A stretch of 62,713 nucleotides of DNA, counting the filler, from Diploschistes diacapsis (taxonomy: Eukaryota), in the NCBI GenBank assembly GCA_023645945.1. It is 19 parts of 19 records of this genome, joined end to end, with 100 filler letters (N's around TTAATTAATTAA, not from the genome) between each part and the next. Parts side by side here need not be neighbours in the genome. Positions count along the whole stretch, not along the records: positions 15,004 to 39,299 come from JALAIB010000242.1; 18 more parts are not named here. One strand, written 5' to 3'. Within the stretch, counting starts at the first letter, position 1. Each line of letters begins with the position of its first letter. The notes beneath the pieces were generated by a model. The model was not told the DNA's origin and did not search any database. It worked only from the letters and a program-made list of their open reading frames with translations. This document shows, one piece after another, positions 17,431 to 38,099 of this stretch. Both the position numbers and the translations under genes were made by a program.

Positions 17431-19071
17431 CTATTCAGAACTGGCTGCTGGTGACATACCTCGCACTCTGTCAAGAAGCTCCTCGACATTACCAGGGAGT
17501 GAGTCTCCGCGCCATGCGACCATACCATCTGGGCGAACAAGTACCAGCCGACGCTCATAAAGTCGTGTCGGCTCGGCCTCGGTCATGGTAATAACTTCCA
17601 ACGGAAGGCGCACCTTGCGTGCTGCTTCCACTATCCTCCCGTCACTTGGCGCTTCTGTGCCAAAACAGAGCAGTACAAACCCACCACCGAATAGGTCGAT
17701 TGTCGAGCACCCGTTCTTCAACCAGCAATGGGGGGCACGATGACCCGGCCGCGCAGTCTGAACGTATATGGCGGGCTCGTCCGGTGGCGCAGGCGAGCCA
17801 TCCGGTACAATGATCGGTGAGTCTGAATAGTTATATCCAAATGCAAGACCTAGAGCCTGGAACTCTTGGCTCAGGCTGGCAACCATCTTCTCGCCGAGGA
17901 CATGTCTCTGCTCGTCTGCCTCAGCACCCTCATCCAGCACCTTCTCTCTTCCTTGACGGTCAACCCAAATAGAGAAGTTTCGTGTGGAGCCAGAGCCGTT
18001 CCGAATCGCCACAGGCCGCCGTTCTGTGTTGTATGCTTCAATGAGACCCGGCCCTCCCCAACCTTCTAGGAGTGCCTGCAAAGCCCAGCTGAGTCCCATC
18101 ACATCGCTTAGCCCTGTGTTTAGCCCGTGCCCGCCGGTTGGTGACATGGTGTGTGCAGAATCTCCAGCCAAGAATACACGACCTTTGCAGTATTTTTCTG
18201 CAGTAAACTGACTGCGTCGCCACTGGAGCACTCGCTTTATTTGGTATTTGATATCATCACGGCCAACGGCCTTCTGCACCAACGCATCCATATCGATGGA
18301 TGCAGGGTCTATCTTTTCACTCGTGCCCATCACCGAGAATCGCCAAAGCGACCGACCATCCAGGGTAGTGAAATTTGCCCAAGTCCCTTCGGGGCTGATA
18401 AACATATAGCGCTCTGCCATGCCTAAGGGATGGTAATCCGTCAGATTGTCGATTCGAACAATTGCACTTAGGGTGTACCCGAGGTCTCGACCGTCAAAGG
18501 AAATGCCGAGTGCCTTGCGCACTGCACTGGAAGGGCCATCACAACCCACAAAGTACCGTGCTCGTACATTCTCTTTGGTGTCATCTTTTACATGTTTGAG
18601 GAAGCACGTAACACCGGTCTCATCCTGCTCACATCCAACAAGCTCAATTCCGTAGCGGATGTCCGTCATGCCCTGGCGAACCACGGCGTGAGCAAGCACT
18701 GGATCAAACAAAAACTGTGGACATCGGCGCAGCATTTCGCTGCTCTGCTTTGGAAGTTCGCGGTCCTGAGTCGAGGGCATCCGAAGACGGCCGATGAACT
18801 TGCCGTTGAGCGAAGTACAGAAGACCGTGTCACCAGAGACATCATCGGGAAAGCCTGCTCTAGCAACCTCGTCTCTAACGCCTAGGAGCCGCAAGAATTC
18901 CATGCTGCGCTCGTTCAGGACACTTGCTTTAGCAAGGATCTCAGTTCTAGTGCCTGGACCACGCTCGATAATCGTCGAATGGACTCCGCGCCGTCCCAGA
19001 TCTAGCGCTAGGGCGAGACCGACTGGTCCTGCACCCGCGATGAGCACGTTGAGAACATTCGAGGTGGCCAT
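17431..19071 (-). CDS. FAD-dependent aromatic monooxygenase (FAD_binding_3, PheA/TfdB-like), 546 aa, intronless
   Basis: GAGPVG Rossmann motif, GCDG motif, FLAGDSAH..SPTGGHGLNTG motif, and C-terminal RPGHRAPH and LVRPDGMVAWRG. Confidence 0.93.
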   Translation of the reverse strand: MATSNVLNVLIAGAGPVGLALALDLGRRGVHSTIIERGPGTRTEILAKASVLNERSMEFLRLLGVRDEVARAGFPDDVSGDTVFCTSLNGKFIGRLRMPSTQDRELPKQSSEMLRRCPQFLFDPVLAHAVVRQGMTDIRYGIELVGCEQDETGVTCFLKHVKDDTKENVRARYFVGCDGPSSAVRKALGISFDGRDLGYTLSAIVRIDNLTDYHPLGMAERYMFISPEGTWANFTTLDGRSLWRFSVMGTSEKIDPASIDMDALVQKAVGRDDIKYQIKRVLQWRRSQFTAEKYCKGRVFLAGDSAHTMSPTGGHGLNTGLSDVMGLSWALQALLEGWGGPGLIEAYNTERRPVAIRNGSGSTRNFSIWVDRQGREKVLDEGAEADEQRHVLGEKMVASLSQEFQALGLAFGYNYSDSPIIVPDGSPAPPDEPAIYVQTARPGHRAPHCWLKNGCSTIDLFGGGFVLLCFGTEAPSDGRIVEAARKVRLPLEVITMTEAEPTRLYERRLVLVRPDGMVAWRGDSLPGNVEELLDRVRGMSPAASSE

Positions 19072-19352
19072 TGTTCTGTATGCTTGATTGTAGGGAATGT
19101 AGGTATTGCAACTTGTAACGGTTTCAAATTATGGCCAGTCGTTGGAACATATGGATTGACGACCTGGCCCAACGTCTCCCCCCCTATAAGCACACCCCAT
19201 CAAGAAGCATCCTCAGTTCCATTAGTTACCACCTATGTTGCCCGACCATACTAAAGTCTGACCGTGAGTGTCTGCCCGGCTCAGCCCGATGAATTGAAAC
19301 CCGATTACCGTATGCCGGAGATCTTGAATTCTGAATGCCGACTGAACGAGTA

Positions 19353-19363
19353 TTCGGAGCCCG
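19353..19363 (-). promoter_or_regulatory. Putative cluster Zn2Cys6 site CGG-N3-CCG(AA) upstream of the FMO
   Basis: TTCGGAGCCCG (reverse complement CGGGCTCCGAA), about 280 bp upstream of the FMO ATG. It matches the sites at 21784 and 25500. Confidence 0.55.
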
Positions 19364-19803: not shown

Positions 19804-21411
19804 TCAGACCGTCACTGTAGCCACCTGGTGCTCAGCAGTGACCTCCCTATTCTGCTTCACGTGATTACTAGCAGGTGTCTCCAAGTCAGGAACGTACTGC
19901 CAGGCCCTATCAAGTCCGCCATAAAACACCCATCGTATCATGTTATCGACTACCATGTTGCCGCCGAGGCCTACATTCTTAGTCACACCTTCTGCAACAC
20001 TCTCCGGCATTCTGTGGCCATCAGCTTCGATTGCCCTCTCCACAGAGTCCACAGTCATGTGAGCGATCTTGACAAAGTCTTCCTTCGCGATCGGGAAATC
20101 AGACCCTACCTCACCCAGCTTCTCCAGACTGTACAATGCGCGCATCACTTTCGCCACATGCCCTTCGTCGCGGTAGACTACAGAACGGTGGAAAAGTTCT
20201 TTCCAGCCGTCCCTTGGATGTCGCGGTGCATAGTTTATGATACGTGCAGGATGCAACGTCGGACTCGCACAGGCGGCGTACATTACGACATCGACCCTTG
20301 CCTTGGCTTCAATCAAGCGGGCCTTTTCTTGATCGGAGATCCAGTCGAGCGCCAAGATGGCCGGATAGAAGACAGAGAGTGTAACATTGTGCAAGAGCAC
20401 GAAGTCCATGGTTTCGCGCTTGCCGGGGCGCTGCGCCGCTCCCATTATATACGCGCAGGTATACATCATGTCTTCCATTTTGCGCTGCAAGCCTTCCGGC
20501 GTCGGCTCGACTTGGAACTGGCTCAGGTGGGGTGCAAGCTCCTTGCCTCCAACGCGTTTGAGAAGACCGTCGCGAATCTTATTGAAGGGATCCGAGTCTC
20601 TCACAGCTGAGTTAATTACAGGATCCTGGCGTAGACCTTCGATTACTTGAAGGAGTGATTTGGACGATACTCCCTGGCCTGACCGAACATACTCTTCGGT
20701 AGGTAACAAAAAGTCCTTGGGCCAATTGTCATGAACACATGCTGCCGCAAGCGCTTCTGCAACAAGACTCGGTTGGTTGAACTCCAGAGCGCACCCCAGA
20801 TGTATTATTGGATGCACGAGGTCTGATAATGACTGTTAGGAAGCAACACTGGCAATGCTCGTGCTGGATTCATTTACCTGTATACATTCGGCAGAAGATA
20901 TCATTTGCACGCTCATCGCCCTTGAGAACATACTCTCTGACAATGTCCGGCACACCTTTCTCGGAAATTTCGTCCTCAAAGAACTTCAAGAAATCTGCAT
21001 AGTGGTCATTGTTTCCAAGACATTTATCAAAAAGTGCTGGATCCTTCAGATCCAGAAGCGATGGTGTCGCCGCATCATTTCCCTTGATGGGGACTTGATA
21101 TGGCTGGTTGTAGTCCCACATATTTTGTATTTCATTGGGGGACGCTCCCAATGCCCACAGCGCGAGAAGGTGGTGAACGATGTGGTCTTGATTCAAAAGT
21201 CAAATATAGTGCTTGATTGACTGGCTTATGTTGACCTACTGTGGAAGCCGCCATTGAATCGGGTGTGGTATGCAGCATGATTGAGTGTGAGCAGCTCAGA
21301 CGCCCTTTTTGCGCTTTCTTCTGTCAGATCTTCAGCATGTGTATGGCCTGGGGTAGCGGTAGGAGACAGCAGTATGGTTTTCGACGCAGTTTGGGGATCA
21401 ATGGCCGTCAT
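19804..21411 (-). CDS. Questin-oxidase / AflY(HypA)-like oxidative ring-cleavage enzyme, ~499 aa, 3 exons (21411-21240, 21186-20878, 20822-19804)
   Basis: GT-AG introns join three ORF pieces into 1500 nt in frame. Family motifs are FHNHIVHHLLALWALGA, HPIIHLGCALEF, DFVLLHNVT and DEGHVAKVMRAL. Confidence 0.85.
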
Positions 21412-21783
21412 ATTGAACGCAGTGGCTGAGGAAGCTCACAAGCAATATTGTGCAACAATGCTGCCAATAGTATTATATTGTGGTATCTGTCAGATGGGTG
21501 CAGGTTGTTGAAGTCCTAAAGCCGGGTTCTTAAGGGCGAAGTTCAGCGAAGTCCGGCATCAATCGAGAGCCAAAAAGCCAAGTTCTGACGTTGTAACATC
21601 ATCATAGAGCAAGCTTCGTCTTGTCTTGTCTTGTCGCTCCGAAAACAAAACGCATGCTGAGAATCTTAGGTAATCTCATAATATATAAATATATAAATAA
21701 AAGACCCTGCTTGTGTGGCGCCAGCTAGGGCTACGCTAACTTGATTCGAGGACTGACTGATGACACATGCCCCGAGACTAGTG

Positions 21784-21799
21784 CCGATCGGTCTCCGAA
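21784..21799 (+). promoter_or_regulatory. Putative Zn2Cys6 site in the divergent questin-oxidase/OMT promoter
   Basis: CCGATCGGTCTCCGAA, 15/16 identical to the site at 25500-25515. Confidence 0.65.
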
Positions 21800-22026
21800 A
21801 TGAAATCTACCCGTTAGAACTACCCGAACTACCCGAAGGCATCGAAAACCCGCACCTAACCTCCCACGTCCACACCATGAGCTAGTCAGTACTACCAGCG
21901 GACCTGGTAGCGGTCATGCCCCTAGTTGTCAACCATATGTAAACACTACTACCGTTGATAGATCTCTGAACCTACTTGATTGTTTCACTATACACAGAGT
22001 CAGATGGTTAAGCTATAGCATGCAAC

Positions 22027-23519
22027 ATGTCCGCCGAACAACCAAACGGCTTATCTGAGCCAGCATTCCCTCTTGAGGAGCTGAGCTGGAAGATCACCAA
22101 GAATGCCAGCGTATTGAGCCAGTACCTAGGAGCAAATAACCTTCCGCAGCCATCGTTGGACGGCGACGGACCAAGTACCGTCGTTCCCAAGGATGCGCCG
22201 CAACATATCCGACAATCACAGCAGCATCTCATTTCAGCATCTCTCGAGTTATTGCAGCTTGCGGTTGGGCCCAGCGAGTACTTGCCCAACCTCGCTCTAG
22301 GGGTAACAATGACGCGCCTCTACTTCATCACCTACAAACATGACGAACTAATGTTCAAGAGTTTCAATACGTCTCCTGTATCTCCTGGCTCTGCCAGTAC
22401 AACATTTTCCGTCTCGTGCCCCTTAGCGGAACTATCAGCTATGGCGATCTTGCAACAGCAGCGCATGTTCCCGAGCAACGCCTCAAGAGCGTCGTGCGCA
22501 TGGCTATGACCGATGCACTTTTCCGTGAACAGTCGGATGGCAAACATATTAGTCACTCGGCGACGTCAGCGCTGCTGGCGCGCAATGAAGATATACACGC
22601 TTGGGCTAGCTATATCTGTGCCAGATCGGCACCAATGGCCATGCAATTTGCAGCAGCGCATAAGCGTTGGGGACCCGAGACCGTACGCGACAACGAGACG
22701 GCCTACAATGTCGCGTTCAACACAGATCTTCCCTTTTTCAAACACATTGGCCGTGACGAGGCCACAATGAGTGAGTTTGCCGGGTATATGCGGAACGTAA
22801 GGAATAGCGATGGCGTCGACATCCGACACCTTGTGGCAGGCTTTGCGTGGAAAGATATCCCTGAGGGCGGTGTTGTTGTTGATGTACGTGCATTCTTTCC
22901 CCGGAACCCTGAGGCTTTTGTATGTGAGAGACTTGACTGATGTCTTTCTGCCATTTAGGTGGGAGGATCGACTGGTGGCGCCGCTATAGCATTGGCCAAG
23001 ACATATTCCCATCTCACCATCATGGTACAGGACCTGCCTGCTAACGCGGACAGCGGGCGCAAAGCAGCAGAGTCTTTCTCTGCAGATATCGCATCTCGGA
23101 TCACCTTCCAAGGCCATGATTTCACTCAGCCGGAGCCAGTGCGAGATGCCGATGTGTATCTTCTCAGGATGATCCTGCACGATTGGCCCGACGATGAAGC
23201 CGCAACAATCCTCAGAAACATAGTCGTGGCGATGGACAAGACAAAGTCACGGCTGCTCATCATGGACACGGTGCTCCCGACGCCAGGGTCGGTGCCTGTT
23301 TCTGTAGAGCGTCTTGCTCGGGTTAGAGACTTGACCATGATGCAAGCTTTTAACAGTAAGGAAAGGGATCTGGCTGATTGGAAGCATCTGATTGCCGCTG
23401 CCGATCCAAGCCTGCAGCTGGTAAATGTCATGCAGCCATTTGGTAGCGCTATGTCGATTTTGGAGGTGACATTAGGTTCTACAACAACAGAGAATGGCCA
23501 TGTAACTAGCTCCCCATAG
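22027..23519 (+). CDS. SAM-dependent O-methyltransferase (Methyltransf_2), ~452 aa, 3 exons (22027-22302, 22362-22883, 22959-23519)
   Basis: VVD|VGGSTG SAM motif split by an intron, plus VQDLP, HDF and LLRMILHDWPD. Introns are canonical GT-AG and splice in frame. Confidence 0.93.
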
Positions 23520-23765
23520 GACCAGGCCCTCGGTCTAACCAGACTTGTCGGCTAAATCTTCGTCTGTTTGGTAGACAAATCGACCGAGCCATGATGTGCA
23601 CCTCGTGCTTCTCTACTCATTTTGGAACATCGACGTGGCTATCGAGACAGGAGACATGAGCCTAGTGACCCAGTAGCAGTCCGACCCAATGAGAAAATTC
23701 GGAGACCATCAGGTGGATTGAACTATTTCCGCAAATTTCTCAAGTCCTGCAACAGCAGGCATACA

Positions 23766-24905
23766 CTACTCCCCATTCGGAATGAAATACACACTCTTAC
23801 CTGGGCCAGCTTCTGCGGCAGCAACATTGAAGGCCTCTTCCCAATCCTCAAGCCTGAACTTCCCGCAAACTTTCTGACCTGCCCTGGAGCCAACCTTCAG
23901 CACACCCCTTTCCACAGTTTTAATCAAGTCCCTAGCCTGCTGAGTTGTGTTCATGAAGGTCCCTTTGATTGTGATGTTCTTGAACGAGATCTGCGAATAG
24001 GGCAGATCGAGGTTATCTCGAATTCCTCCCATTAAGCTCATGCGACCTCCTGACTTCAAGCACATGAATCCCGCTTTGATGTGCGAGCTTTTACTGGCCA
24101 CGGTCGGGGAGATGTCGAAGTAAACATCCAAGGGTCCAAACTTCGCCAGAGCATTAACATCTTCTTGTACGTCGCCGCTGATCTTGACGATTTCTACCCT
24201 TCCAGGCTCGGCGAGCTTCTTCAGCTCTGCGAGCGCCATCTCATTCCTTCCCATAGCGATGACTCGGGCTCCCATAGACAGAGCAACATGCACCGCAGCA
24301 CTGCCGAATGATCCCGTAGCCGTAGCAATCAAGACCGTCTCACCGGGCTTCAAGCCGATATCTGCGAGTCCGCCGTATGGTACGATCAGCTGGCTAAGCG
24401 CTCCAAGTTCTTCAAGCTTATACCCCAATTGTCCAACTAGAGCATTCTCGTCGAGGACATGCACTCCTTCCATCGGCGCTGTTGATAGTTCGCCCCAGCA
24501 CCCGTTTCGCCAATCCTCCGCCATCAGCTTTCTGCCTGCCTCACTGACCTCGTGGAAGCCACGCAGGATTTTGACATTGGGGTCGTCACGGGCCCGCACC
24601 GTTACCTCGACGTATACCAGCTGCCCAGGTTTCAAGCTAGTAGCATCGGACGGCACAGCAGCGATGCGGGCGATGCATGTTCCGCCGGGGACGGAGGGCA
24701 GAGGGTATTTGTAGCCTCTTGGGTTTCCGTTTGCGAAGATTTCCCCAGCGTATTGAACAATGATAGCATACAAAGGCTTGATGACTACGGTTCCAGCAGT
24801 GGGGATTGGAGTCGGCAGCTTCGCGAGGGTGAGAGATTCGGACGGGGAGTGGATCTGCAGGCCAGTGTAGGTCTCCGGGAGAGAGTGTTCTGCATGAGCT
24901 GCCAT
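23766..24905 (-). CDS. Medium-chain dehydrogenase/reductase (GroES-like ADH fold), ~379 aa
   Basis: ATGSFGSAAV nucleotide-binding motif and MDR-like layout. The likely start is MAAHAEHSLP (24905) rather than 25076. No classical GHE zinc motif is seen. Confidence 0.85.
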   Translation of the reverse strand: MAAHAEHSLPETYTGLQIHSPSESLTLAKLPTPIPTAGTVVIKPLYAIIVQYAGEIFANGNPRGYKYPLPSVPGGTCIARIAAVPSDATSLKPGQLVYVEVTVRARDDPNVKILRGFHEVSEAGRKLMAEDWRNGCWGELSTAPMEGVHVLDENALVGQLGYKLEELGALSQLIVPYGGLADIGLKPGETVLIATATGSFGSAAVHVALSMGARVIAMGRNEMALAELKKLAEPGRVEIVKISGDVQEDVNALAKFGPLDVYFDISPTVASKSSHIKAGFMCLKSGGRMSLMGGIRDNLDLPYSQISFKNITIKGTFMNTTQQARDLIKTVERGVLKVGSRAGQKVCGKFRLEDWEEAFNVAAAEAGPGKSVYFIPNGE

Positions 24906-25499
24906 CTCGATTGAGGAAGAGTGGTGATGAGGACTCAGTGAGTGACCAGTGGATAAACTCTTGGGGGATTGATATATCCCCCTCTTTGTAAGCGCCGAGA
25001 ACGTCATCGTCACACTCCCCATCATCCTGGCCTTGCCTGCAGCATTCCAGTTTTTTGATGCAAACCGCAATATCATCCTTGGTGAGCTAAGGCGGTCAAG
25101 AAATCAACCACTACGTGCAGATTAGACTTCTGAACTTTATAACCATGGGGGGCATTGGTGGATGCAGAGCATAAGTTAAGCTGAAACCCTGCATAGAAAA
25201 CATATCATGATTGGTAAATACCTCCAGATATAAAATAATTATAAAAGTTTACCTGCGAAATTGCGGTGATAACTTGTTTACGCGCCCTCTACGCCCGAGC
25301 ACCTCCGCTACCTCCGGCCTTCTGCATCCGTCTCCGCTCTTTTGGAGATCGAGTTTCCGCCTTTGCTGCCCGCCTTACCTTGTTTTCCCGGTTGATTCGA
25401 GCTTCCTCCTTCTTCCCGCTTGCGCTCATAAAGCGTGGCAGAGTATTGACCTCTTGTATACTGGTGTTCTGTTGGGGTTGTGACAAAATGCAGTGTCTC

Positions 25500-25515
25500 C
25501 CGATCGGTGTCCGAA
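25500..25515 (+). promoter_or_regulatory. Putative Zn2Cys6 site in the divergent MDR/P450 promoter
   Basis: CCGATCGGTGTCCGAA, almost exactly midway (~600 bp) between the two ATGs. Confidence 0.65.
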
Positions 25516-26116
25516 CAATCTTTCGCGTACGCAGTATAGTTGCATGGAGATTCTATAGGACAATCAGCGTGCTCCTATTACCTCACCAATCACTACCTAC
25601 GTTCTTGCTTACAGAACTAATAGTGCTTATGTTTTCGCTTCCGGTCGGGTTACGAAGCTGACATGCTGCATGATACCGTTGAGCATCCCCGTCGGACATA
25701 ACTCACTCGTCTTCAAAAGCCGTTGGCTCTTATCCTCCAAAGACACAGCTCTATCAAGCTCTGAGATGTTCCCTGCATTTCAAGAAATAAGCTTTCGGGC
25801 CAATCACTTCGACTCATAGTAAGGACTATGGATGATCAACGCACTGTGTTGTCTCCTTATTTCATTGCGGATTCGAAGTTGTATCGAGGCTGGTAAGCTC
25901 GACCTGCTCCTATTTAGCTTCACTTTGCTAGCCTCGTTGTCTACAAGAATATCCAAGTTCCTGCGAGTAATAAACTGGTTGGACGACCACCTGGATTGCT
26001 ATGATAAGGACCACAACTGATCCAGTAGCGTCTAATGATTAAACATAAACTTGAACTATCTCTGCTCTAATTGATCAACGTTTTTTGTTGCGTATTGTCC
26101 TGGTGGAATACTTGAC

Positions 26117-27760
26117 ATGGACGGGATACTTGCTACATACGAAAGCCAGAGAATTCTGGCTCTTGCGACGCTGTTTACGGCCATAGCAATTGTTATAGCA
26201 TGGCTACGCCGTGATCGCAGGCTTGACTCAATACCGGGACCAAAGGGTTACCCGCTGATTGGCGTCGGTTACAAACTTCCACCTAAGGCGCCGGCGATCT
26301 TCCGCAAATGGGCGATGGACTATGGTGAAGTTTTCAAAATTCGTGTGGGCTGGTACAACTGGGTGGTCATCAATACTCCGGAAGCCGTACGGGAGATTCT
26401 AGAGAAGCAGGCCATCAGCACGTCCTCCAAGGCTCCTTCTCCAATGGGCCACGACATAGTCACAGGTGGGAATCGTATGCCGACGATGCCGTACGGAGCT
26501 CGCTGGAAAGCTCTGCGGTCAGTGGTGCGGCAACTCACCACGGTACCCATGACGGCAACCTTCATCCCGAGCCAGGAGTTCGAGGCCAAACAGCTGCTCT
26601 TTGATCTAGCCACCGATAACGAAAACCAGCGCAACTTCTACCAGCACATGCGCCGCTTCGCTTTTAGCGTCATTAACACAACCACGTTCGGCACTCGCGT
26701 CAAGAACTGGGACCACCCAGATGCGCAGAATGCGGTAAGAAGTCAGGCGATATTGAGAAGAACGTCGCGACCCGGAGCTTTCCTTGTCGACGAATTACCT
26801 CCACTGGCCCGTCTACCAAAATGGCTCCAACCCGGTCAAAAAGAGGCAAAACAGGCCGCCAAGCAAGTGTTAGACATAAAGGTGGAGCTGTGGCAGCGAT
26901 TGCAGAAGCAGATCGAGTCAGGCAAGGCGCCTCACTCTTTTGCACGCGAAATTTATGAAAGCAGGGAATCGTGGTATTCTCAGGGGCTCACAGAAGAGCA
27001 CTTGATATGGGTTTCCAGTGGGCTTGTTGAGGCAGGTTTCGAGACGACAGCGGCCACGCTGAGCAGCCTTGTGCTCCATCTTGCCGCGAACCCGCGGGTA
27101 CAGAAGGAGGCACAGGAAGAGCTCATGCGTGTTGTCGGCCCCAGTCGTCTGCCCACCTACCAAGACATTCGCGCTCTGCCATATGTTCGTGCCTGCGTCA
27201 AGGAAATGCTTCGCATGAACCCCATTCTAGCTCCGGGCGTTCGGCATTTTACCGACGAAGACATCGTGTACAAGGAGCACATCATACCCAAGGGAACAGT
27301 ACTGCTCGCCAATACGGCTTTCTTGCATTACGACCCCACGCGTTTCGAAGACCCGTTCGAATTCAAGCCCGAGCGCTACCTGGACCATACCCTGTTCAGC
27401 TCCGAGTACGCGGCCATGAGCGATCCATACAAGCGTGACCACTTTACTTTCAGCACGGGCAGAAGAACGTGTCCGGGTGCGCGTCTGGCCGAAAACTCGC
27501 TCGACATTGCGCTCGCGGGCATCCTGTGGGCCTTTGAGATCCGGCCGCCCGTCGTGAACGGTGTCGAGGCCAAGATGGACCTGAGCGACAATGCATACCT
27601 GGACGCGGGATTCACCATACCTACACCCTTTGCCGCCAGATTCCTCCCAAGAAGCGAGGATAGGCTTCGAATAGTCAAGGAGCAGTGGGATCTTGCGACA
27701 AAGGAAGGCTACGAGCTCAGAGGCGTACCAGTTGACCTCGATGGCGTAGTTGGGGACTAG
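26117..27760 (+). CDS. Cytochrome P450 monooxygenase (CYP64/OrdA-like clan), 547 aa, intronless
   Basis: N-terminal membrane anchor plus PGP, I-helix AGFETT, EMLR (ExxR), PERY and heme motif FSTGRRTCPG. Confidence 0.95.
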   Translation: MDGILATYESQRILALATLFTAIAIVIAWLRRDRRLDSIPGPKGYPLIGVGYKLPPKAPAIFRKWAMDYGEVFKIRVGWYNWVVINTPEAVREILEKQAISTSSKAPSPMGHDIVTGGNRMPTMPYGARWKALRSVVRQLTTVPMTATFIPSQEFEAKQLLFDLATDNENQRNFYQHMRRFAFSVINTTTFGTRVKNWDHPDAQNAVRSQAILRRTSRPGAFLVDELPPLARLPKWLQPGQKEAKQAAKQVLDIKVELWQRLQKQIESGKAPHSFAREIYESRESWYSQGLTEEHLIWVSSGLVEAGFETTAATLSSLVLHLAANPRVQKEAQEELMRVVGPSRLPTYQDIRALPYVRACVKEMLRMNPILAPGVRHFTDEDIVYKEHIIPKGTVLLANTAFLHYDPTRFEDPFEFKPERYLDHTLFSSEYAAMSDPYKRDHFTFSTGRRTCPGARLAENSLDIALAGILWAFEIRPPVVNGVEAKMDLSDNAYLDAGFTIPTPFAARFLPRSEDRLRIVKEQWDLATKEGYELRGVPVDLDGVVGD

Positions 27761-27889
27761 AGGAGAAGGGAGGGAGGGAGGGAGGGAGGGAGCAAAGCTG
27801 CAGTCAGAAGGTGGCAGAATTCAATGCACATGCAAACCAGGAAGAGATAGGTTCCAGGGAAGGTTGAGTACGGAATCGGAGCTCTATTT

Positions 27890-29080
27890 TCAAGTATCGA
27901 GCTCCCTCAATCTAGATCTCACCATATTGGCTATCCGTGAATGCTCGCTTCTCAACCATGAGTCTAAACTTTGATACAAATTATTTACACCGCTAAAAGC
28001 ATATTCATCGAGGGGAGATTGTCCGCCAGAGCTATGTGAAGTGAACTGATCGATGAGACGGCCGGCTCTCCTCATCTCCCCCGACAGTAACTGCATCTTC
28101 AAGGCGGTCTCGACGTGTAGATCGTCGACGTCGAAAGTGCCGATGGCCATCTTTGCTGCAGCACTTTGTGCGCAAACAGCCGCTTGTTGATACCACATCA
28201 GGATCCGGGAGATGATGGATGCATAGAGCAATGTGAGGTGCGGGGATTTAGCACAGCGGCAGGATAGAAGACGAACGAGCCGCTCGCTGGCCTCGCGGTT
28301 GAGGTGTAATATGTGATCCAAGGGCATGCGCTGGACGGTGCTGGCCGTGGCCGAGGCCGAGGCTGGTGGCGATTGAGATATGGAAGGTGCGTTGTTGAGG
28401 CTATGCAAAGACAAGCCGCCTAGGATTTCGTACGCTTCCGAAACACAGTCGTGACCTTTATCACCTGCAGGCGGCAGTAAGGTACCGTCGAGATAGCCGG
28501 ACTCATCCACCTGGGTCAGAGAAGCATCGGTTTGCGTCGCGGGAGTTGAGAAGGCTTCGAACACGGGCGCTCCCAGCGAAGAGACCAGGCCGGTGTTCAT
28601 ATCAGAAGATAGCGCATCACCGTGCTCCAAAGACGTGAAATCCGGGAGCACAGACCCGAATAGATTGCCGTGCAGTGCATCAAGCGCATCAACGCTTAGC
28701 ATATAGTTACTCCGAAAGCCATCAACGGCGCTCCTTGCTAAGAATACATGATTAACGCTCGAAACTGGTCCAGAGCTCGGGACGATACCATCAAAGCCAT
28801 TGCCAGCACCAGTACTGCGATCATAATCTCTGTCCCTAGCCTGGCTGCCAGCGTGCTCGCCAGGCGTGCAAGATGCGCTCGACGCCTCAGTGATCCGGAG
28901 TCTCTCCCGCGGCGGCTTACCCATTTTCCGTGACACTCCGTAGACACATTTAAAGCCAAGCGAGATGCACCTGCCGCACTCAGGCTGGGCCCGATCACAT
29001 CGAAGCTTCGCAGCACCGCATGCATCGCAACTAGATCGCAGCTTCAGTTGTCTCGGGACTCGAGTCGGTGCATCGGCCAT
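27890..29080 (-). CDS. AflR-type Zn(II)2Cys6 pathway-specific transcription factor, 396 aa
   Basis: KLRSSCDACGAAKLRCDRAQPECGRCISLGFKCVY binuclear cluster. The C-terminal HDC...LLSCRCA...ISRILMWY segment is typical of the AflR domain. Confidence 0.9.
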   Translation of the reverse strand: MADAPTRVPRQLKLRSSCDACGAAKLRCDRAQPECGRCISLGFKCVYGVSRKMGKPPRERLRITEASSASCTPGEHAGSQARDRDYDRSTGAGNGFDGIVPSSGPVSSVNHVFLARSAVDGFRSNYMLSVDALDALHGNLFGSVLPDFTSLEHGDALSSDMNTGLVSSLGAPVFEAFSTPATQTDASLTQVDESGYLDGTLLPPAGDKGHDCVSEAYEILGGLSLHSLNNAPSISQSPPASASATASTVQRMPLDHILHLNREASERLVRLLSCRCAKSPHLTLLYASIISRILMWYQQAAVCAQSAAAKMAIGTFDVDDLHVETALKMQLLSGEMRRAGRLIDQFTSHSSGGQSPLDEYAFSGVNNLYQSLDSWLRSEHSRIANMVRSRLRELDT

Positions 29081-29820
29081 GATGGATCAGGAAAGCTCAA
29101 TCAATCGAAGTTCGCAGGCATAGGGTATAGAATAACGGGGGTAGAAAGAGAATCCGGATTGAGCCAAAACGCACGCAAGCAGGCAAACATTGACATTTAA
29201 CGGCCCCCATATGAAGAACGGAAGGGGGCGTTGGGGGTGAGAATCCGACGTTTGACTCTTCGCTTGGACTGACTAAGACAAGGGCTTGGGGGGTAGAGCA
29301 GGATGCGTTTCAGCAGTCAGGAAGGCCCTCCCGTAAATTCCAAATAATCAGTGAGATATCAGCTTTTCTCAGTCAGTACCATAACATCAGAGACTCAGAG
29401 ACGAGAGAGAGACGGCACAGATGCCACTCTACAGCTACGGTAGGTTCTAATGATCAGGGTTTTAGTGCCAGAGATTCGACACCTTTTCTTTGTCTTCATG
29501 GGGTGCCAAGTGGGGGGGGGGAGCCTTGTAATAATCTCTAACGGGCGAATCCTATGCCTAGAACGCTCTACTCTACTCGATCAGTAGAGACCAAGTAGAG
29601 ACCAAGTTAGAGACCAAGTAGAGAGACCAGTAGTAGTCTAGTAAGCCAGTAGCTTAGTGGCGCAGGAGCCTAGTAGCCACTAGTTCCGCCAGGGTATTAC
29701 TGGCGGCTCCTCCCTTGAAGACGAAAAAACGTTATTTTGTTATTGCCGCCCGATCTTCGGAGACGACTCGGAAGCTCCCGGGGAAACTCGAAATTCATCG
29801 AGATTTCAGCCTTAGCCGTG

Positions 29821-29887
<67 letters not shown>

Positions 29888-29935
29888 ACTACTACTACTA
29901 CTCCTACTACTACTACTACTCCTACTACTACTACT
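29821..29935 (+). repeat. (CTA)n microsatellite with a few interruptions
   Basis: Read directly. It explains the poly-Y/poly-L/poly-T ORFs. Confidence 0.95.
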
Positions 29936-29936
29936 T

Positions 29937-30011
29937 ACGGAGGCATTATTTACGGAGGTATTGTTCACGGAGGTATTATTTACCGAGGTGCTTTATACCG
30001 AGGTATTTTAT
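29937..30011 (+). repeat. 15-bp tandem repeat (ACSGAGGTATTATTT) x5
   Basis: Units: acggaggcattattt, acggaggtattgttc, acggaggtattattt, accgaggtgctttat, accgaggtattttat. Confidence 0.8.
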
Positions 30012-31013
30012 TTAGCATTTAACGGCCCCATGTCGTCATATCCCAAATATAGTAACGAACTCGCTTATGATAAACGATAAAAGAAAGCGGTGAAATGAAT
30101 TTCCCTGCCAAGACGCCTTCTTCATCCACCTTAGTCATGATGGTAGTAGCTCAGGCTAACTTATCCCAAGAAATGCCCGGAGTTAGTATTCGGTATTAAG
30201 CAGAATCTTTCCCTCTCGTTGATTGATAGTTCCTGCACGCATTTTCCACCGCGTCGGCCCGCGCTCTACAGCGTTCCTAGGATTCCGACTACGCAAGATA
30301 AGGCTAGGGATGCGCTGCAGAGTCTTGCTATGATCCATGCGGTATGACGCCAAGGACTCCGCTGCGGGTTTGGTCCTGGCAGCTCTCCGAACTCACTCCT
30401 GCGCTCTACCACCGCGCCGCCGGCGTATACTTCGAGATCCAGCTCTTTGTACGCCTTACTCCTCGAAGGATTGGATTTCAAACACGCTCCCAGATGCTCG
30501 CCATGGGGGCATCCGGTCGGGAAGCGATTTGCTCGTGCCCGAGTAGTTGTTTTTACATTCGTTCTCCCCTGCGTCGTCGTGCGCGGTTGTCGAGCATCAG
30601 ATCCCCATGGATAGGTATTCCCGGATATCTCAGTGGCAATCATGCTGTTTCGCTCAAAAATGATTACCCGACGACTCCCGACTAACACCCCGATAGGCAG
30701 CGACCGGCTTATAGAGCGGTCAGGACCATGTCCGGCTTTATGAGCAATCTCAACAGCGATGTGACAACACTACTAATGCATGATGATCATTGCCTGCTTA
30801 AGCTCCTCATTAAAACCTTTCTACAAGAGATCTATACAACTAGCGGCTGAAGTACAGCATGTTGCACCATCCTTTGGCTCACGACGCCATACCCTGGCCT
30901 GCATAATTCGTAGGCAGGGGTTTGACGACCTTTGGCAGACATTTATATCCATATCAAACACCAATCTTTCAGAGAGGGGGCTAGTTCTCGATAGAAATCA
31001 AGAAACATTCAAC

Positions 31014-34000
31014 ATGGCAGATCAATTGAAGTTGTACCTCTTTGGAGACCAGACATATGATATTCAACCACATTTCAAAGATTTGGTACGGCATAGGCAG
31101 AATCCAGTACTTGAAGACTTCCTTGTCAAAGCATACGATGCCATTCGCACAGAGACATACAAGCTACCAAGCCATATCAGGGATGAGCTTCCTCGATTCA
31201 CAAGCCTGGACGATATCATCTTCCGGAGGCACGGCGGAAGACGATGTGTGCCCCTGGATATGGCCATGACTTGCACGTATCAGCTTGGAGCCTTTATCAG
31301 GTATGAACGAATTCTGACCGGTCTGGCAGAGAAGCTAAAACGAGCCGTTCAGTCAGGTTGACCATCGGAATTACTGCGGCGAGAATGCTCGTATATTTGG
31401 CCTTTGTACAGGAGCCTTGGCTGCGGCGGCAGTTGGCTGCAGCCGTAGCACGCTCGAACTCATCCCAATGGCAGTTAATGCGGTCGTTGTGGCTTTCAGA
31501 ACAGGTATGCATGTGACCGACGTTGCACGGCGAATCGAGCCCTGGCATGCATCGGACCGAAGCTGGTCAATAATCGTTCCTGGCCTGGCGGCTGCTGAAG
31601 AGGCTGTAAATCGATTCTGCGAAGAGACCGTAAGAATACCCTCCTCGATCCCTTGATTTTCATATTTCACAGCTTTCTCCGTCGGCGGTTAACTTGGCAC
31701 TTTCATCAGATGCTGCCACTTACGAGCAAACCATGGAGCAGCGCATACGCCGTGAACGGATTAACGGTCAGCGGGCCGCCCGGCTCACTGGCACAACTTA
31801 CCACTTCGACGAGTTTCAAAGACCTACGCTTTCAGAGCATGCAGATCTTCGCACCATATCATGCTCCACATCTACATTCTCAGGGAGATGTTGATGAAAT
31901 CGTCGGAAGCTTGATTCCCTGCGGTGCGGATGCGCATCTGAACCAGATTCCAGTCTTCTCCGGCACGGGAAGTACGGTGGAAGGTGGCGATTTCCGGGCG
32001 CTTTTGAAGGCCGCAGTCGGGCAAATACTGCTGCAACCGATTCGCTGGGGCAGCTTCCTTGAAGAGCTTCAGACATGTCTCAAGAAGCTGGGCTCCAGGT
32101 CATTCAGTATCATTCCCATCGGAACCAAAGCCGACCAGCTCATCTACACGGCGCTCAAGCAGACGCCGCTGCGAGAATTGTTGCTATCTCCACCAACACC
32201 CAGTATCCCGTCGCTTTCGGAAGATCCATCACATTCACGCCACGGAAGGTCCAAGCTCGCCATCATAGGAATGTCTGGCAGATTCCCCGGAGCCAAGGAC
32301 AATGAGGCATTCTGGGACCTCCTGTACCAAGGTCTGGATCTGCACAAGCCTGCTCCAGCACTTCACTGGGACGTAAGAACGCACGTGGACCCCACAGGCG
32401 CCCGAAAAAACACCAGTCAAACGCCGTTCGGCTGCTGGCTCGATGACCCGGCCGTGTTCGACGCACGCTTCTTCAATATTTCGCCACGGGAAGCGCCGCA
32501 AATCGATCCTGCACAACGACTGGCTTTGATGACGGCTTATGAGGCAATCGAACAAGCTGGTATTGTTCCGGATGCAACTCCCTCGACCAGGCGTGATCGT
32601 GTCGGCGTCTTCTACGGCGTCACCAGCAATGATTGGATGGAGACCAACAGTGCCCAGAATATCGACACATATTTCATACCGGGTGGGAATCGAGCATTCA
32701 TACCCGGGCGCATCAACTACTGTTTCAAGTTCAGCGGCCCGAGTTTCGCGGTCGATACGGCATGTTCGTCCAGTCTCGCTGGTATTCACCTTGCATGCAA
32801 TTCGCTCTGGCGAGGGGATATTGACACGGCGATCGCTGGCGGGACAAACGTTCTGACCAACCCAGATTTCACGGCTGGGCTCGACAGGGGGCACTTTCTC
32901 TCACGGACCGGGAACTGCAAAACCTTTGACGACACGGCGGACGGGTATTGTCGCGGAGAAGGTATCGGGACCGTCATTCTCAAACGTCTCGACGATGCCA
33001 TTGCCGACAAGGATCCAATCCTGGGCGTCATACTCAGCGCGTACACTAACCACTCCGCGGAGTCCGAGTCGATTACTCGGCCACATGTTGGAGCCCAGCG
33101 TGCGATATTCAGCAAAATCCTCAACCAAGGAGCCGTGGATCCATACACCGTCAGTTACGTTGAAATGCATGGTACGGGCACCCAAGCAGGTGATGCCGGG
33201 GAAATGTCTAGCGTTCTGGATACTTTTGCGCCGTCTCCGGACCAGGCCACGAAGGGCCGAGCTAGTGACGAGGCTCTCTATCTGGGATCTGCGAAGGCGA
33301 ATATCGGACATGGCGAAGCCGCGTCCGGTGTTTCGAGCCTGATCAAGGTGCTGCTGATGATGCAGAAAAACACCATTGTTCCGCATTGCGGAATCAAAAC
33401 GAAAATCAATCACAAGTTTCCGACGGATTTACGGGAACGGAACGTCAACATCGCCTTGAAGCCCACCTCTTGGGAGAGAAGCTCTGATCCCTCGAAGCCT
33501 CGACGCGTCTTCGTGAACAATTTCAGCGCTGCGGGTGGAAATTCAGCGTTGCTGATCGAAGACGCACCGCTCAAGCCCGAACCTTCCGATGAAGTTACAG
33601 ACCCGCGAAGTCAACATCTCGTGGCAGTCTCTGCCAAAAATGGCGTCTCTTTGCAGGGTAACCTCGAATCCATGCTCAGGTTCTTGAAACAGAACCCAGG
33701 TATCTCCCTCAACAAGCTTTCCTATACCACCACAGCTCGGCGACTGCATCATCGGCACCGTGTCATGCTTACTGGCTCAAACGTTGAAGAGTTCTGTGCG
33801 CAAATCGAAACAGCTCTCCGCGACCGGACCGGGATGACCAGATCCAAGAGTGCTCCGAAAATCCTGTTCACCTTCACTGGTCAAGGTGCACAATATCCTG
33901 GGATGGGGAAGGAGCTCTTTGAGAACTTCTCTTTTTTCCGGAATGAAATGCGCCGACTGGATCACATTGGACAGAGCCTGGGCTTTCCCTCCATGCTACC

Positions 34001-37000
34001 CGTCATACAGTCCGATGAACAAGACATCGGTATCTATGCGCCCATCTCTGTCCAATTAGCTGGCGTCTGCTTTCAAATTGCCCTCCATAAATTGTGGGCG
34101 TCATGGGGCATCCTGCCCGTCGCCGTCGTCGGACACAGCCTCGGCGAATATGCAGCTCTTAACGCTGCTGGGGTGCTATCGGACGCAGATACCGTCTACC
34201 TTGTGGGGAAGAGAGCCGAGTTGCTCCAGCAGGAATGCACTCGAGATACCCATGCAATGCTTGTCGTCAAGGGGTCGGTGGATGAGATCGCTGTTATCCT
34301 GAAGGATCACGCGCACGAAGTTGCTTGTATCAATTCACCGACCGAAACTGTTCTGGCTGGGCCGAACGAAGACATCTTTGTTTCTCAGGGACTACTCAGG
34401 GATGCAGGGCTTAAATCGGTGCTGCTTAAGGTCCCCTACGCTTTTCATTCCTCTCAGATCGAGCCGGTGCTGGAGGATTTCAAGAGGTCAGCCAGTGGCG
34501 TGACGTACTCCAGGGCCAAGATCCCTATCCTAAGTCCCTTGGATGGCAACATCATCGACGACCACGGCAGTTTCGGCCCCGACTACCTCGTTCGTCATTC
34601 TCGCGAGCCTGTAAACATGCTCAAGGCGCTCCAGGAGGCATACCGCAGTCACGTTATTACTGACCAGACTATGATGCTTGAGAATGGCCCACATCCGGCA
34701 ATTTCGACTATGGTGAAGACAGTCCTAGGGCCGCAGATGCCGACCCTCGCATCATCGAAACGGGGCCAGCCGATCTGGCAGGTGCTGGCAGTAACCTTGA
34801 AAACCGCTTACGCCGCTGGCGCCGACGTCAACTGGTCCAACTACCACCGCGACTTCAAGGTCTCTCACGAAGTCATTCCCTTGCCGGCATATAGCTGGGA
34901 CTTGAAGGAATACTGGATCCAGTACGTTAATGACTGGTCTCTGCGGAAAGGCGACCCTCCTTTAATAATCAATAATGCCTTGACGCTCGAGAGCACAACG
35001 ATCCACAGGGTCGTTGAGGAGACGGGCGATTCCCACAAAACTCGCATGGTCGTGGAGGCAGATATCGCACGGAAAGATCTCAGTCCACTAGTGCAAGGGC
35101 ATGAGGTTGATGGAATTCCGCTTTGCACGCCGTCAGTTTACGCGGACATTGCATTGAGCCTCGGTACATACCTCCTGAAGCGTTATCGTCCGGACCAGGA
35201 GGAGAATCTTGTGGACGTTTCGGATATGACAATCTCAAAGGCTTTGATTCTGCGCGAAGGCGCCGCCCAGCAGCTCCTTCAAGCGCATGCCGAAGTTGAC
35301 TGGTCGTCGAACGCGGCAGCTGTCAAGTTCATGTCCTTTGATGTAAGTGCTCCTTTGCATCCGACCTACTTCCCTTCTCTGGACGAAGAGCTAATGAAAT
35401 CTACCTCAGAGCCACCAGAAGCTACAGGAGCACTCACGATGCGTGGTGCGCTTCAAGGACAGGAGTCTCCTGAAGAAGCTCCAAAAAGACGCGGCAGACG
35501 TGAAGCGGAAGATGCAAGCTCTCCGAGAAGGAATTGCCGCAGAAGTCACCGCCCGTTTCAACCGCCCTATGGTATATCGTGCGATAAGACCGCTGGCGCG
35601 ATTCCACGACGACTATCGGGCCATTGACGAGATCGTGTTGAACAGCAATACGCTCGAGGCCTCGAGTCGTCTCAGCTTCGGCAGTGTGAAGAGAGGCGGC
35701 GACTACCACACCCATCCAGCCATAATCGATTCTCTGACGCAGTCTTGCGGATTCACCATGAACTGTAACGATGGAACTGATCTGGATACCGAAGTCTTCA
35801 TGAACCATGGATGGGGCTCCTTCCAGATATTTGAGCCCTTGGATTTTGATAAGGAGTATACTACCTACACACGCATGGTCGAGGGGCAAGACAAGTTGTG
35901 GCATGGGGATGTGGTGATCTTCAACGGTGATGAAATAGTCGCCCACTTCGGGCAAATTTCCGTAAGTTCATTCTGCTCCGTTTCGGATGACATGAGCACT
36001 GTGCTTACCGTATCTTCTAGATCCAAGGCGTGCCACGTCGGGTCTTGAAGGTTATTCTCTCACTCGAAAGCGGAGTCAAATCACAGAAGCGGCAGCCTGC
36101 CTCCAAGAAAGAGCCTGTTCCTACAATGCCGGCTTCTTCCACTGGTGCCTCTCGGGGTTCTACACCGGTCAAGGAAGAGCCTGATGCATCTAGGCTTGCA
36201 CAAGCATTATCGATCATCGCCGAAGAGAGTGGCCTTGCATTATCGGATTTGACTGACAACACCACTTTTGGCGACGTCGGGATCGACTCCCTCCTGGGTC
36301 TTACAGTCACCGCTCGATTCAAGGAGGAGCTTGGCATAGACATGGATTTCAACGCGCTGTTCTTCGAGTATCCCACAGTCAGCGATCTCAGAGCTTTCTT
36401 GGGAGAGTCCGAGGTTACCTCACCTGCAAGCTCTGTCCTGAATACCACAACGACCACGCCAAGGTCTAATGTAACTGGGGCCACGACACCGGCTACCGAC
36501 AGGGACTCACTCGCGCAAAAGATTGATTTCCAGCGCGCTCTCGAGATTATTTCACAAGAAAGTGGAGTCGCGACGGAAGAACTCGGTGACGATACCGATT
36601 TCACTGACTCTGGCATCGATTCTCTGTTGTCGCTTGTCATCGTCAGTCGCTTACGGGACGAGCTGGAAATGAACCTTCAGCACGAGTCTCTCTTTATGGA
36701 GTGCCCAACCGTGGGAGACTTGAAGCAAATGCTGTTAGGGGGCACAAACGCCAACGACACGGCCCGACCACCAGCGGAGAGCAAGCCGGTCTCCACTCCA
36801 GCCCCTGAGTCAGCACAGAATACAGCCAAGAAGAACAGGCCGACGCTTCAAACTGAGGATGAAAAGGCGGTTCTTGCAGCTCGCAAGGAGGCGGTTGATG
36901 GGTATGTTCAGAAGTACACTGCCGGATTCTCTGCACCCGTCCCTGCAAGCTCGTATACTGCCATAAACGACAACACAAAGGTTGTATTGGTAACGGGAGC

Positions 37001-38099
37001 ATCCGGGAGCTTGGGAGGCCACTTGGTTGATCAAATCGCGCAAATGGCTGACGTGAAGACGGTTGTCTGTCTGAATCGCGAGAAAAACGTGGAACCCTAT
37101 CTGCGCCAAAGCAAGGCCATGAGGGACAAGGGCATCCGCTCCTTCGACAAAATCAGGTCCAAGCTGCTGGTGTTGCAAACCGACAGCTCAAAGCCAAACT
37201 TTGGACTCTCAAGAAGCGAATACGAAAGGCTGACGGGTTCGGTCACTCACCTCATTCATAATGCGTGGCCCATGAGCGCAAAAAGGGCTTTGGCTGGATT
37301 CGAGTCTCAGTTTCAAGTCATGCGCAACCTCATCGACTTTGCTTGCGACGTTGTGTCTCGGCGTTCGGAGGAATTCAAGTTCAGCTTTCAGATGGTGTCT
37401 TCGGTCGGCGTGGTGGGCCACTACGGCCTCGGGAACGGCGAGGAAAAGACCATGGTGCCCGAAGATAGAATGAGCATCGATTCGGTACTCCCAAATGGCT
37501 ACGGAGACGCAAAATGGGGCTGTGAGAGGATGATCGACGAGACGTTGCACAAGCATCCCAACCGATTCCGAGCCATGGTAGTCCGCCTGGGGCAGATTGC
37601 CGGCTCCAAGACCAGCGGATACTGGAACCCCATGGAGCACTTTGGCTTCTTGATCAGGTCCTCGCAGACGCTGAACGCTCTACCAGACGTAGATGGCACC
37701 GTCTACTGGACCCCCGTCAACGACATTGCCGGAAGCCTTGCCGACCTCGTACTGTCGGACCATGCAACCTACCCAATCTACCACATCGAGAACCCGGTCG
37801 GCCAGCCTTGGTCCGAGATGAATACTATTCTGGCTCATGCGCTGAACATTCCGAACTTGGTCCCCTTCGAGGAGTGGCTCGAGCGCGTCCGAGCGGCTCC
37901 GCAACGAAACAACCCGGCCTCCACGCTCCTAGGGTTTTTGGATAGCAACTACCTTCGGATGTCTTGCGGGGGGCTTGTTCTGGGCACAAAGAAGGCCCTT
38001 GAGCATTCCAAGACACTTGCTGCCGTTGGGCCCGTGAGCGAGGAGGTGGTCAGGAAGTACATTCATGTTTGGAAGGAAATTGGCTTCTTGGACTCATAA
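31014..38099 (+). CDS. Non-reducing iterative PKS SAT-KS-MAT-PT-ACP-ACP-R (Fsr1/PGL1-like architecture), ~2275 aa, 5 exons (31014-31300, 31353-31629, 31710-35342, 35410-35961, 36021-38099)
   Basis: SAT GLCTG; KS DTACSSS, HGTGT and NIGH; MAT GHSLG and YAFH; PT GHEVDG...IIDS; two GIDSL ACP motifs; terminal reductase TGASGSLG and YGDAK. Four GT-AG introns give a 6828-nt in-frame CDS. Confidence 0.95.

Follow-up and report, generated by a model that had tools for sequence, protein, structure and literature searches.

The stretch of DNA considered here (the window) comprises 62,713 nucleotides from the lichen-forming fungus Diploschistes diacapsis (GenBank assembly GCA_023645945.1), made up of 19 parts of 19 records joined end to end with filler. 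At nt 17431–38099 lies a cluster of seven genes, encoding an FAD-dependent monooxygenase (FMO), a questin-oxidase-like dioxygenase of the DUF4243 family (QO), an O-methyltransferase (OMT), a medium-chain dehydrogenase/reductase (MDR), a cytochrome P450, an AflR-type transcription factor (TF), and a non-reducing polyketide synthase (PKS). An earlier reading made from the sequence alone (the sequence-only reading) had described seven intact genes with three divergent promoter pairs, and this observation was confirmed: all seven products gave Pfam matches, every frame was open once spliced, and the divergent pairs were QO-OMT (intergenic region nt 21412–22026), MDR-P450 (nt 24906–26116), and TF-PKS (nt 29081–31013). 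The gene models were built from stop-to-stop open reading frames (ORFs) and Pfam scans, followed by a search for GT-AG junctions that kept the frames open; those of PKS, QO, and P450 could be aligned with annotated homologues from one end to the other. All seven products contained the catalytic motifs that were looked for, except for one pattern of the product template (PT) domain. It is somewhat probable that the locus is an intact member, in a lichen-forming fungus, of a widespread and conserved class of Fsr1/PGL1-type clusters, with a proposed ring-cleaving pathway.

The PKS gene (nt 31014–38099, plus strand) was predicted to have five exons with GT-AG junctions, nt 31014–31300, 31353–31629, 31710–35342, 35410–35961, and 36021–38099, and to encode a protein of 2275 aa with the architecture SAT-KS-AT-PT-ACP-ACP-R (starter-unit acyltransferase, ketosynthase, acyltransferase, product template, two acyl carrier proteins, and reductase). 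The Pfam domains detected were SAT, ketoacyl-synt, Acyl_transf_1, PS-DH, two PP-binding stretches, and NAD_binding_4, and the motifs were GLCTG112 (SAT), DTACSS537 (KS), HGTGT675, GHSLG996 (AT), GIDSL1670 and GIDSL1781 (two ACPs), and GASGSLG1909 and YGDAK2077 (R domain). The one PT-domain pattern tried had no match in the PKS, the PT domain itself being detected by Pfam, and the Pfam scan of the protein gave neither a methyltransferase (CMeT) nor a thioesterase (TE) domain. Residues 1–2274 aligned with residues 1–2272 of the relative P0020 with 8 gaps, and full-length identities of 72% to 78% were shared with eight annotated relatives of matching length and architecture, including Cladobotryum 'fsr1' and a protein of Ilyonectria, a member of the Nectriaceae (the names being automatic). 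The exon coding for KS-AT-PT had at least 119 non-self relatives (73% to 85% identity), several of them named at source as fusarubin-cluster PKS or fsr1, from Lecanoromycetes, Xylariales, Sordariales, Hypocreales, Eurotiales, Dothideomycetes, and Leotiomycetes; among the matches listed, the best named ones were from lichen-forming fungi, Xylographa soralifera (82%) and Nephromopsis pallescens (81%). The fusarubin-type PKS proposed in the sequence-only reading was thus borne out by architecture and by the full-length identity to proteins named for the fusarubin cluster or fsr1 and to those of Nectriaceae, and as judged from its sequence, in comparison with these annotated relatives, the PKS is an Fsr1/PGL1-type orthologue.

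The QO gene (nt 19804–21411, minus strand; predicted exons nt 21411–21240, 21186–20878, and 20822–19804) encoded a putative non-heme iron dioxygenase of 499 aa, with matches to the Pfam family Questin_oxidase (PF14027) on two exons (2.7e-63 and 2.7e-30). Its residues 1–477 aligned with the relative P0143 at 68%, and it shared 50% identity over the full length with AflY of A. ochraceoroseus; its relatives of solved structure were AflY (8yxs, 6e-48), BTG13 (7y3w, 6e-37), and PaD (8z4q, 2e-31). Candidate iron ligands were found in HNH57-59 (H57/H59), HPIIH164, LHNVT (H305), and GHVAK (H382 and K385), which match the conserved His/Lys columns of AflY, BTG13, and PaD; in PaD the ligands are H63, H166, H317, H394, and K397 (PMC11371914). 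By motif position, therefore, the predicted QO retains the 4-His-1-Lys iron site. In PaD, a lid confines the enzyme to small substrates, whereas GedK and BTG13, which have no lid, accept tricyclic hydroquinones (PMC11371914). In the lid comparison, which covered lid motif 2, the QO showed a gap of 13 residues relative to PaD at that motif (K246-A258).

In a tree of 55 full-length DUF4243 members (quick search, midpoint root), the true AflY proteins formed a clade of 4 rows (A. ochraceoroseus AflY, Aspergillus sp. HF37, Podospora pseudopauciseta, and Seiridium), and the QO of the window fell in a clade of the 51 others, both branches having 99% support in the SH-like approximate likelihood ratio test (SH-aLRT). 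The 51-row clade also contained all 17 QO copies for which a PKS or P450 relative on the same contig had been flagged. The sequence-only reading had also assigned this gene to a family of ring-cleaving enzymes, and the literature agrees in that characterised members, as described in the sources available in part, cleave hydroquinone rings: GedK, BTG13, MdpL, and AflY act on tricyclic hydroquinones together with a reductase, and PaD on monocyclic hydroquinones (PMC11371914, PMC12173810). Another member, OzmD, has a pyridine C-nucleoside as its substrate (PMC12173810). None of the characterised DUF4243 substrates described in those parts comes from a fusarubin-type pathway.

The P450 gene (nt 26117–27760, plus strand, single exon; Pfam p450, 5.4e-76) encoded an ordinary microsomal-type enzyme of 547 aa with the heme motif FSTGRRTCPG and the motifs AGFET and EMLR. 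Residues 1–545 aligned with four relatives with 0–1 gaps, and many orthologues carry the automatic database name 'O-methylsterigmatocystin oxidoreductase'. The TF gene (nt 27890–29080, minus strand), predicted to be a single exon, encoded a Zn2Cys6 protein of 396 aa with the domains AflR (PF08493, 2.7e-19) and Zn_clus (PF00172, 3.5e-09), in which the Cys6 motif was seen. Contigs of one sequencing run that matches the window (X2, see below) carry a 1-base insertion at nt 28761, in the linker of the TF at about residue 107 and within the reading frame. An intron near this position was rejected; since the sole GT..AG candidate, of 53 bases, would break the frame linking both Pfam domains, the single-exon model was kept.

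Relatives of the QO (60% to 84% identity) and of the P450 (70% to 83%, mostly 547 aa) were found across ascomycete classes among the matches listed. The lists for PKS, P450, and QO held the best 118 to 119 matches each, and contig sharing was read from identical 'longest contig' values between lists, so that the counts are lower bounds. PKS and P450 shared a contig in at least 28 cases (28 of the 118 PKS relatives listed; at least 22 of them under 200 kb), P450 and QO in at least 22 (at least 11 under 200 kb), PKS and QO in at least 11 (at least 7 under 200 kb), and all three in at least 4. Judged by locus tags, the cluster genes lie at intervals of 1 to 6 in these nine named genomes: Parahypoxylon ruwenzoriense, Xylographa pallens, Trypethelium eluteriae, Caloplaca aetnensis, Pyrenodesmia sp., a contig of fungal origin listed under Carpinus fangiana, Penicillium macrosclerotiorum, Talaromyces pinophilus, and Thermocarpiscus australiensis. 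Orthologues were also present in culturable genera (Penicillium, Talaromyces, and Aspergillus).

Nine metagenome loci around P450 relatives (L001 and following), one of which held an unrelated P450, were compared with the cluster; L002 and L003, as well as L005 to L008, look like two organisms resampled, and the loci overall represent about three independent lineages. The order and orientation P450(+)-TF(-)-PKS(+) was collinear in all four loci long enough to contain it (L002, L003, L005, and L006, about two independent lineages), while L001 contained P450-TF; the PKS orthologue of L002 was recovered as five tblastn pieces. TF orthologues (37% to 64% identity) had the same position and orientation in L001 to L003, L005, and L006. 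The QO lay upstream in L002 and its tail in L003, and an FMO orthologue (71.6%) adjoined the P450 in L005 to L007. Thus, where the sequence-only reading had implied a special, compact combination, P450-TF-PKS with a nearby QO was found to recur across lichen-forming and many other ascomycetes. We regard the identity of the cluster and its conservation as highly probable.

The shared intergenic regions contained candidate sites for the TF. A perfect palindrome, TCGGTCTCCGA, was located at nt 21788–21798 between QO and OMT; another, TCGGTGTCCGA, at nt 25504–25514 between MDR and P450, together with TCGGGTTACGA at nt 25645; TCGGGAAGCGA was located at nt 30517 between TF and PKS, and TCGGAGCCCGG at nt 19354 upstream of FMO. 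A TCGGN3CCGA palindrome was also observed upstream of the QO orthologue in L002 (nt 6075 and 6136), and the palindrome TCGGGGCCCGA upstream of the P450 orthologue in L002 (nt 9661) and L003 (nt 1961); the corresponding search in L005 to L007 gave no palindrome of this type. Sites of AflR-type regulators follow the pattern TCGN5CGA. The palindromes of the cluster combine this pattern with CGGN3CCG, the motif reported for PglR of Fusarium (PMC4872168). An unbiased scan for triplet pairs gave nothing convincing. The TF probably acts on all genes of the cluster through these TCGGN3CCGA-like candidate sites. The TF-PKS region also carried an (ACT)38 microsatellite (nt 29821–29935) followed by a 15-bp tandem array (nt 29935–30007, 4.9 copies), and contigs of the runs X1 to X3 break or diverge at this microsatellite.

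The FMO gene (nt 17431–19071, minus strand, single exon, 546 aa) encoded a class A flavoprotein hydroxylase acting, by family, on aromatic rings, with a C-terminal thioredoxin-like domain, Pfam matches to FAD_binding_3 (3.9e-75) and Rng_hyd_C, and the motifs GAGPVG, DGPSS, and GDSAH. Its nearest relative of solved structure was RebC (6e-93, full length), and enzymes that tailor polyketides, such as RubL, GrhO5, and RdmE, matched as well; a search of the ESM Atlas returned only generic clusters of bacterial FAD monooxygenases, with no link to Fsr3. RebC is a bacterial indolocarbazole enzyme, and all look-alike clusters of the FMO in the ESM Atlas are bacterial, which may reflect either the make-up of the databases or an old bacterial affinity of the FMO lineage. 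The OMT gene (nt 22027–23519, plus strand; predicted exons nt 22027–22302, 22362–22883, and 22959–23519, the donor of intron 1, GTAACA, being weak) encoded a protein of 452 aa (Pfam Methyltransf_2, 2.1e-21) with the motifs VVDVGG and LHDW, resembling fungal natural-product O-methyltransferases such as GedA; its solved relatives include GedA and LepI. In run X2, a 1-base deletion at nt 22916 falls inside the predicted intron 2. The MDR gene (nt 23766–24905, minus strand) encoded a protein of 379 aa with matches to ADH_zinc_N (1.8e-15) and, weakly, ADH_N, its start codon being taken as that of MAAHAE, although further in-frame Met codons lie upstream. The Rossmann motif ATGSFG was seen in the MDR, and a motif scan for zinc ligands found neither GHE nor a Cys cluster.

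A close known counterpart is the Fusarium fsr1-6 or PGL1, pglJ, M, X, V, R, E cluster, which has the same PKS architecture and orthologue-level similarity to the PKS of the window; both clusters possess, at the family level, an OMT, an FAD monooxygenase, an MDR-type dehydrogenase, and a Zn2Cys6 regulator. In Table S1 of the Fusarium study, PglJ is listed as an O-methyltransferase, PglX as a zinc-binding dehydrogenase/quinone reductase, PglV as a short-chain dehydrogenase/reductase (SDR), and PglE as an esterase, and the rows consulted include no P450 or AflY-like gene (PMC4872168). Conversely, the Pfam scan of island ORFs of at least 100 aa gave neither an SDR (PglV/Fsr5 in Fusarium) nor an alpha/beta-hydrolase that would correspond to the esterase PglE. 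The contrast in gene content drawn in the sequence-only reading, with the SDR lacking and a P450 and a QO added, therefore agreed with these rows, and because of the P450 and DUF4243 genes the cluster of the window is not a gene-for-gene match to that of Fusarium.

This resemblance leaves a lesser but real possibility that the product is an ordinary, uncleaved naphthoquinone of the fusarubin/bostrycoidin type or an aza-anthraquinone pigment, such as one of fruiting bodies, the QO and P450 serving only for decoration, recycling, or detoxification. The orthologous PKS of Fusarium yields perithecial pigments (PMC4872168, PMC7589453), PKS, OMT, and FAD monooxygenase suffice for the formation of bostrycoidin, javanicin, and anhydrofusarubin in yeast (PMC7589453), and five of the products of the window (PKS, OMT, FMO, MDR, and TF) have family-level counterparts in Fusarium. 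Moreover, deletion of pglX, the MDR-type gene of Fusarium, had no visible effect (PMC4872168), so that oxidoreductases of such a cluster can be dispensable. However, QO and P450 are conserved across ascomycete classes and remain linked to the PKS, which argues for a role of both in the core pathway; in addition, every candidate iron ligand is retained in the QO, and all fungal members of its family characterised in the available parts of the literature carry out a ring cleavage that changes the skeleton (PMC11371914, PMC12173810).

Among the best 119 relatives listed for QO or P450, none belonged to Hypocreales, a weak negative given the extent of those lists. Koczyk et al. (2015) grouped fsr1 with the aflatoxin/sterigmatocystin synthases in a single C4-C9 clade, connected AflR-type factors with this clade, inferred a transfer of fsr1 from Pleosporales into Fusarium, and, in the text available, tied DUF4243 to the emodin-type clade only (PMC5635595). 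The wide conservation, the absence of Hypocreales from the QO and P450 relatives listed, and the transfer proposed by these authors together suggest that an arrangement like that of the window came first and is more widespread, the studied Fusarium cluster being a reduced, derived version.

The second system for comparison is the formation of aflatoxin and sterigmatocystin, in which AflY (HypA) takes part in the step from anthraquinone to xanthone; AflY is the nearest solved relative of the QO, and both pathways have an AflR-type regulator. The QO differs from AflY in belonging to a separate clade, and unlike the aflatoxin system the cluster has a PKS that ends in an R domain and is not accompanied by fatty-acid starter genes. 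The expected substrate is a heptaketide quinone rather than versicolorin. GedK, BTG13, MdpL, and PaD share the Pfam family and, by motif position, the 4-His-1-Lys site with the QO, and GedK and BTG13, like the QO, are without lid motif 2 of PaD. The substrates of GedK, BTG13, MdpL, and AflY are derived from anthraquinones, and the candidate partner reductase in the cluster is the MDR.

A pathway may be proposed by analogy with these systems. By orthology, the PKS would build a heptaketide, and reductive release would give a naphthaldehyde like 6-O-demethylfusarubinaldehyde; FMO and OMT, as the roles of Fsr3 and Fsr2 suggest, would then hydroxylate and methylate it to give a fusarubin-like quinone. 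After closure of the pyran ring such a quinone would be tricyclic and thereby resemble an anthraquinone in shape. The zinc-less MDR would reduce it to the hydroquinone, and the QO, as a putative open-pocket relative of AflY, would break a C-C bond in the central ring; the P450 is a candidate for further oxidation. Because a fusarubin-like PKS is paired with a ring-opening enzyme, the product is possibly ring-opened rather than a plain pigment. Cleavage of a fusarubin-type hydroquinone is plausible on these grounds, and the chances of a ring-cleaved end product appear about even.

Several observations weigh against this proposal. The Fsr1 protein of F. fujikuroi lay outside the comparison set, and the product assigned to the PKS follows from orthology alone. 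The shared-contig counts, taken from lists of best matches, give a lower bound only, and Squamulea squamosa has its PKS relative and its P450 relative on different contigs. Orthologues of OMT and MDR were not found within 10 kb in L002, L003, L005, and L006, and in L002 their place is taken by a second P450 and an enzyme of the Methyltransf_11 type (the genes being located at L002:3422–5161 and L002:8465–9499). Conservation thus extends to part of the gene set only, and the additional P450 and methyltransferase of L002 imply that the tailoring set varies around a constant P450-TF-PKS core. The MDR matched solved structures of alcohol dehydrogenases and quinone oxidoreductases weakly (best 7.9e-10), and the partner reductases of GedK and MdpL belong to NAD_binding_10 (PMC5635595), unlike the MDR; the latter, zinc-less and lying nearby in the cluster, is no family member of the MdpK-type partner, and the loci of relatives gave no counterpart of it. 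Within the DUF4243 family, OzmD performs no simple cleavage (PMC12173810). As for regulation, TCGGN3CCGR was not enriched over the whole window (7 occurrences versus 3.3 expected, a number reached in 8 of 100 shuffles), and TCGN5CGA was below expectation (10 versus 17.5); since the motif has no significant enrichment at the level of the window, the palindromes are to be taken as suggestive.

A more specific form of the ring-cleavage proposal is that clusters of this class encode a route from a fusarubin-type pyranonaphthoquinone to pyranochromones of the fulvic acid/citromycetin type, which we consider rather unlikely. The sequence-only reading had put forward a cleaved scaffold resembling fulvic acid, citromycetin, or polivione as a possible product. 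In such a route, the MDR would reduce the quinone, the dioxygenase related to AflY as a sister would open the central ring, as anthraquinones are opened toward xanthones, and re-closure by a phenol would give an 'oxa-xanthone' retaining the carboxyl group. Fusarubin and fulvic acid both bear a 3-hydroxy-3-methyl pyran ring, and cleavage with re-closure would mirror the chemistry leading from anthraquinone to xanthone. An old labelling proposal reportedly connects fulvic acid to a fusarubin-like precursor. In the literature searched, no gene cluster was found for fulvic acid, citromycetin, or polivione, nor any paper linking an Fsr1-type PKS to a DUF4243 enzyme. Penicillium hoeksii, P. ranomafanaense, and P. 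alutaceum are reported as producers of fulvic acid, and an unknown quinone is attributed to P. verhagenii, one of the carriers of a QO relative (PMC7426331); between the producers given in the available part of that source and the carriers of the cluster there was no usable overlap.

Fusarubin-type synthases are among the most conserved fungal PKSs, yet study has been confined to the reduced cluster of Fusarium. In fungi other than Hypocreales, the synthase usually has two companions, a P450 of high conservation and a ring-opening dioxygenase resembling AflY, and this companionship points to an unrecognised, probably ancient end product as well as to a new class of substrates for DUF4243 dioxygenases. 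If the pyranochromone route were correct, a ring-cleaved heptaketide rather than a naphthoquinone pigment would be an ancient, widely conserved metabolite of ascomycetes, lichen-forming and others. The old question of the genes behind fulvic acid and citromycetin-type compounds also becomes testable. For lichens, the cluster is a candidate for pigments and metabolites still without assigned genes. Gerasimova et al. (2022) assigned PKS genes of Ramalina intermedia and Cladonia grayi to FSR1 (PMC9146135); in the text available, these lichen PKS genes are treated alone, and a linked P450, regulator, or DUF4243 gene is not mentioned. A link to cristazarin was considered and set aside, as Crz7 has been placed beside the melanin-type AT4HN synthases (PMC10289310) and the available part of PMC8397021 holds no cluster data. 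What is new lies not in the single locus but in what it represents, a widespread and conserved form of the fusarubin cluster, so far uncharacterised, that includes an AflY-sister dioxygenase.

The cluster is contained in a GC-rich island (nt 15004–39299, record JALAIB010000242.1; 52.5% GC) with AT-rich DNA on either side that resembles the outcome of repeat-induced point mutation (RIP). The GC content shifts abruptly near nt 15000 and 39350, the flanking blocks having about 31% to 32% GC. A setting between RIP-affected blocks would fit a silent or decaying relic, in which the genes look intact and no product is made, a reading that we judge very unlikely. The relic reading also has in its favour the relative represented by L005 and L006, which come from two samples (L005:13551–17486 and L006:6549–10469), and in which the PKS begins inside the AT domain, with GHSLG about 40 residues in, directly after the TF; the TF, P450, and FMO near this shortened PKS look intact and an MFS transporter follows, and this copy looks like a decaying cluster. 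In the window, however, all seven frames are open and the motifs sought were found, with the exception of the PT pattern, and the RIP indices of the island are normal (TpA/ApT 0.69, (CpA+TpG)/(ApC+GpT) 1.25), in contrast to the bias of the RIP type in the flanks (1.09–1.10 and 0.57–0.70, respectively).

Contigs of three DNA runs from three studies (X1 to X3, comprising a lichen metagenome, which is possibly the source of this DNA, a run of an organism given by a code, and a rock metagenome) covered 30 of the 30 bins of nt 17431–37430, and no RNA run was listed among those matching. Long pieces of the X2 contigs differ from the window by about 1% to 2%, the relative behind this run being 2% to 3% diverged. 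Of 64 indels in X2, 12 were displayed, ten of them in intergenic regions or OMT intron 2; the remaining two were an in-frame insertion of 6 bases in the TF and the 1-base insertion in its linker. Ten non-coding indels and one in frame also speak against a relic, the linker insertion being the exception.

At the edges of the island, ORFs at nt 15212–16490 and 38371–38751 were dropped as cluster genes, having no counterparts in related loci. The former region holds long, overlapping ORFs on both strands at the left edge, of low complexity and rich in Ser, Thr, Gly, and Ala; a Pfam scan of the minus-strand ORF (nt 15420–16490) gave no family. Outside the island, AT-rich, RIP-biased blocks extend over nt 1–14000, 40000–47800, and 52200–62713 and keep the cluster island apart from the GC island that follows at 48–52 kb. 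On both sides of the island, paired masks of 44 N come back at intervals of roughly 2.14 kb (36 runs, together 1584 N), with none in nt 15004–39299. The next GC island contains a multi-exon gene for a Sec20 SNARE protein (PF03908, 8.9e-09; nt 50282–51785, plus strand), a housekeeping neighbour located outside the cluster.

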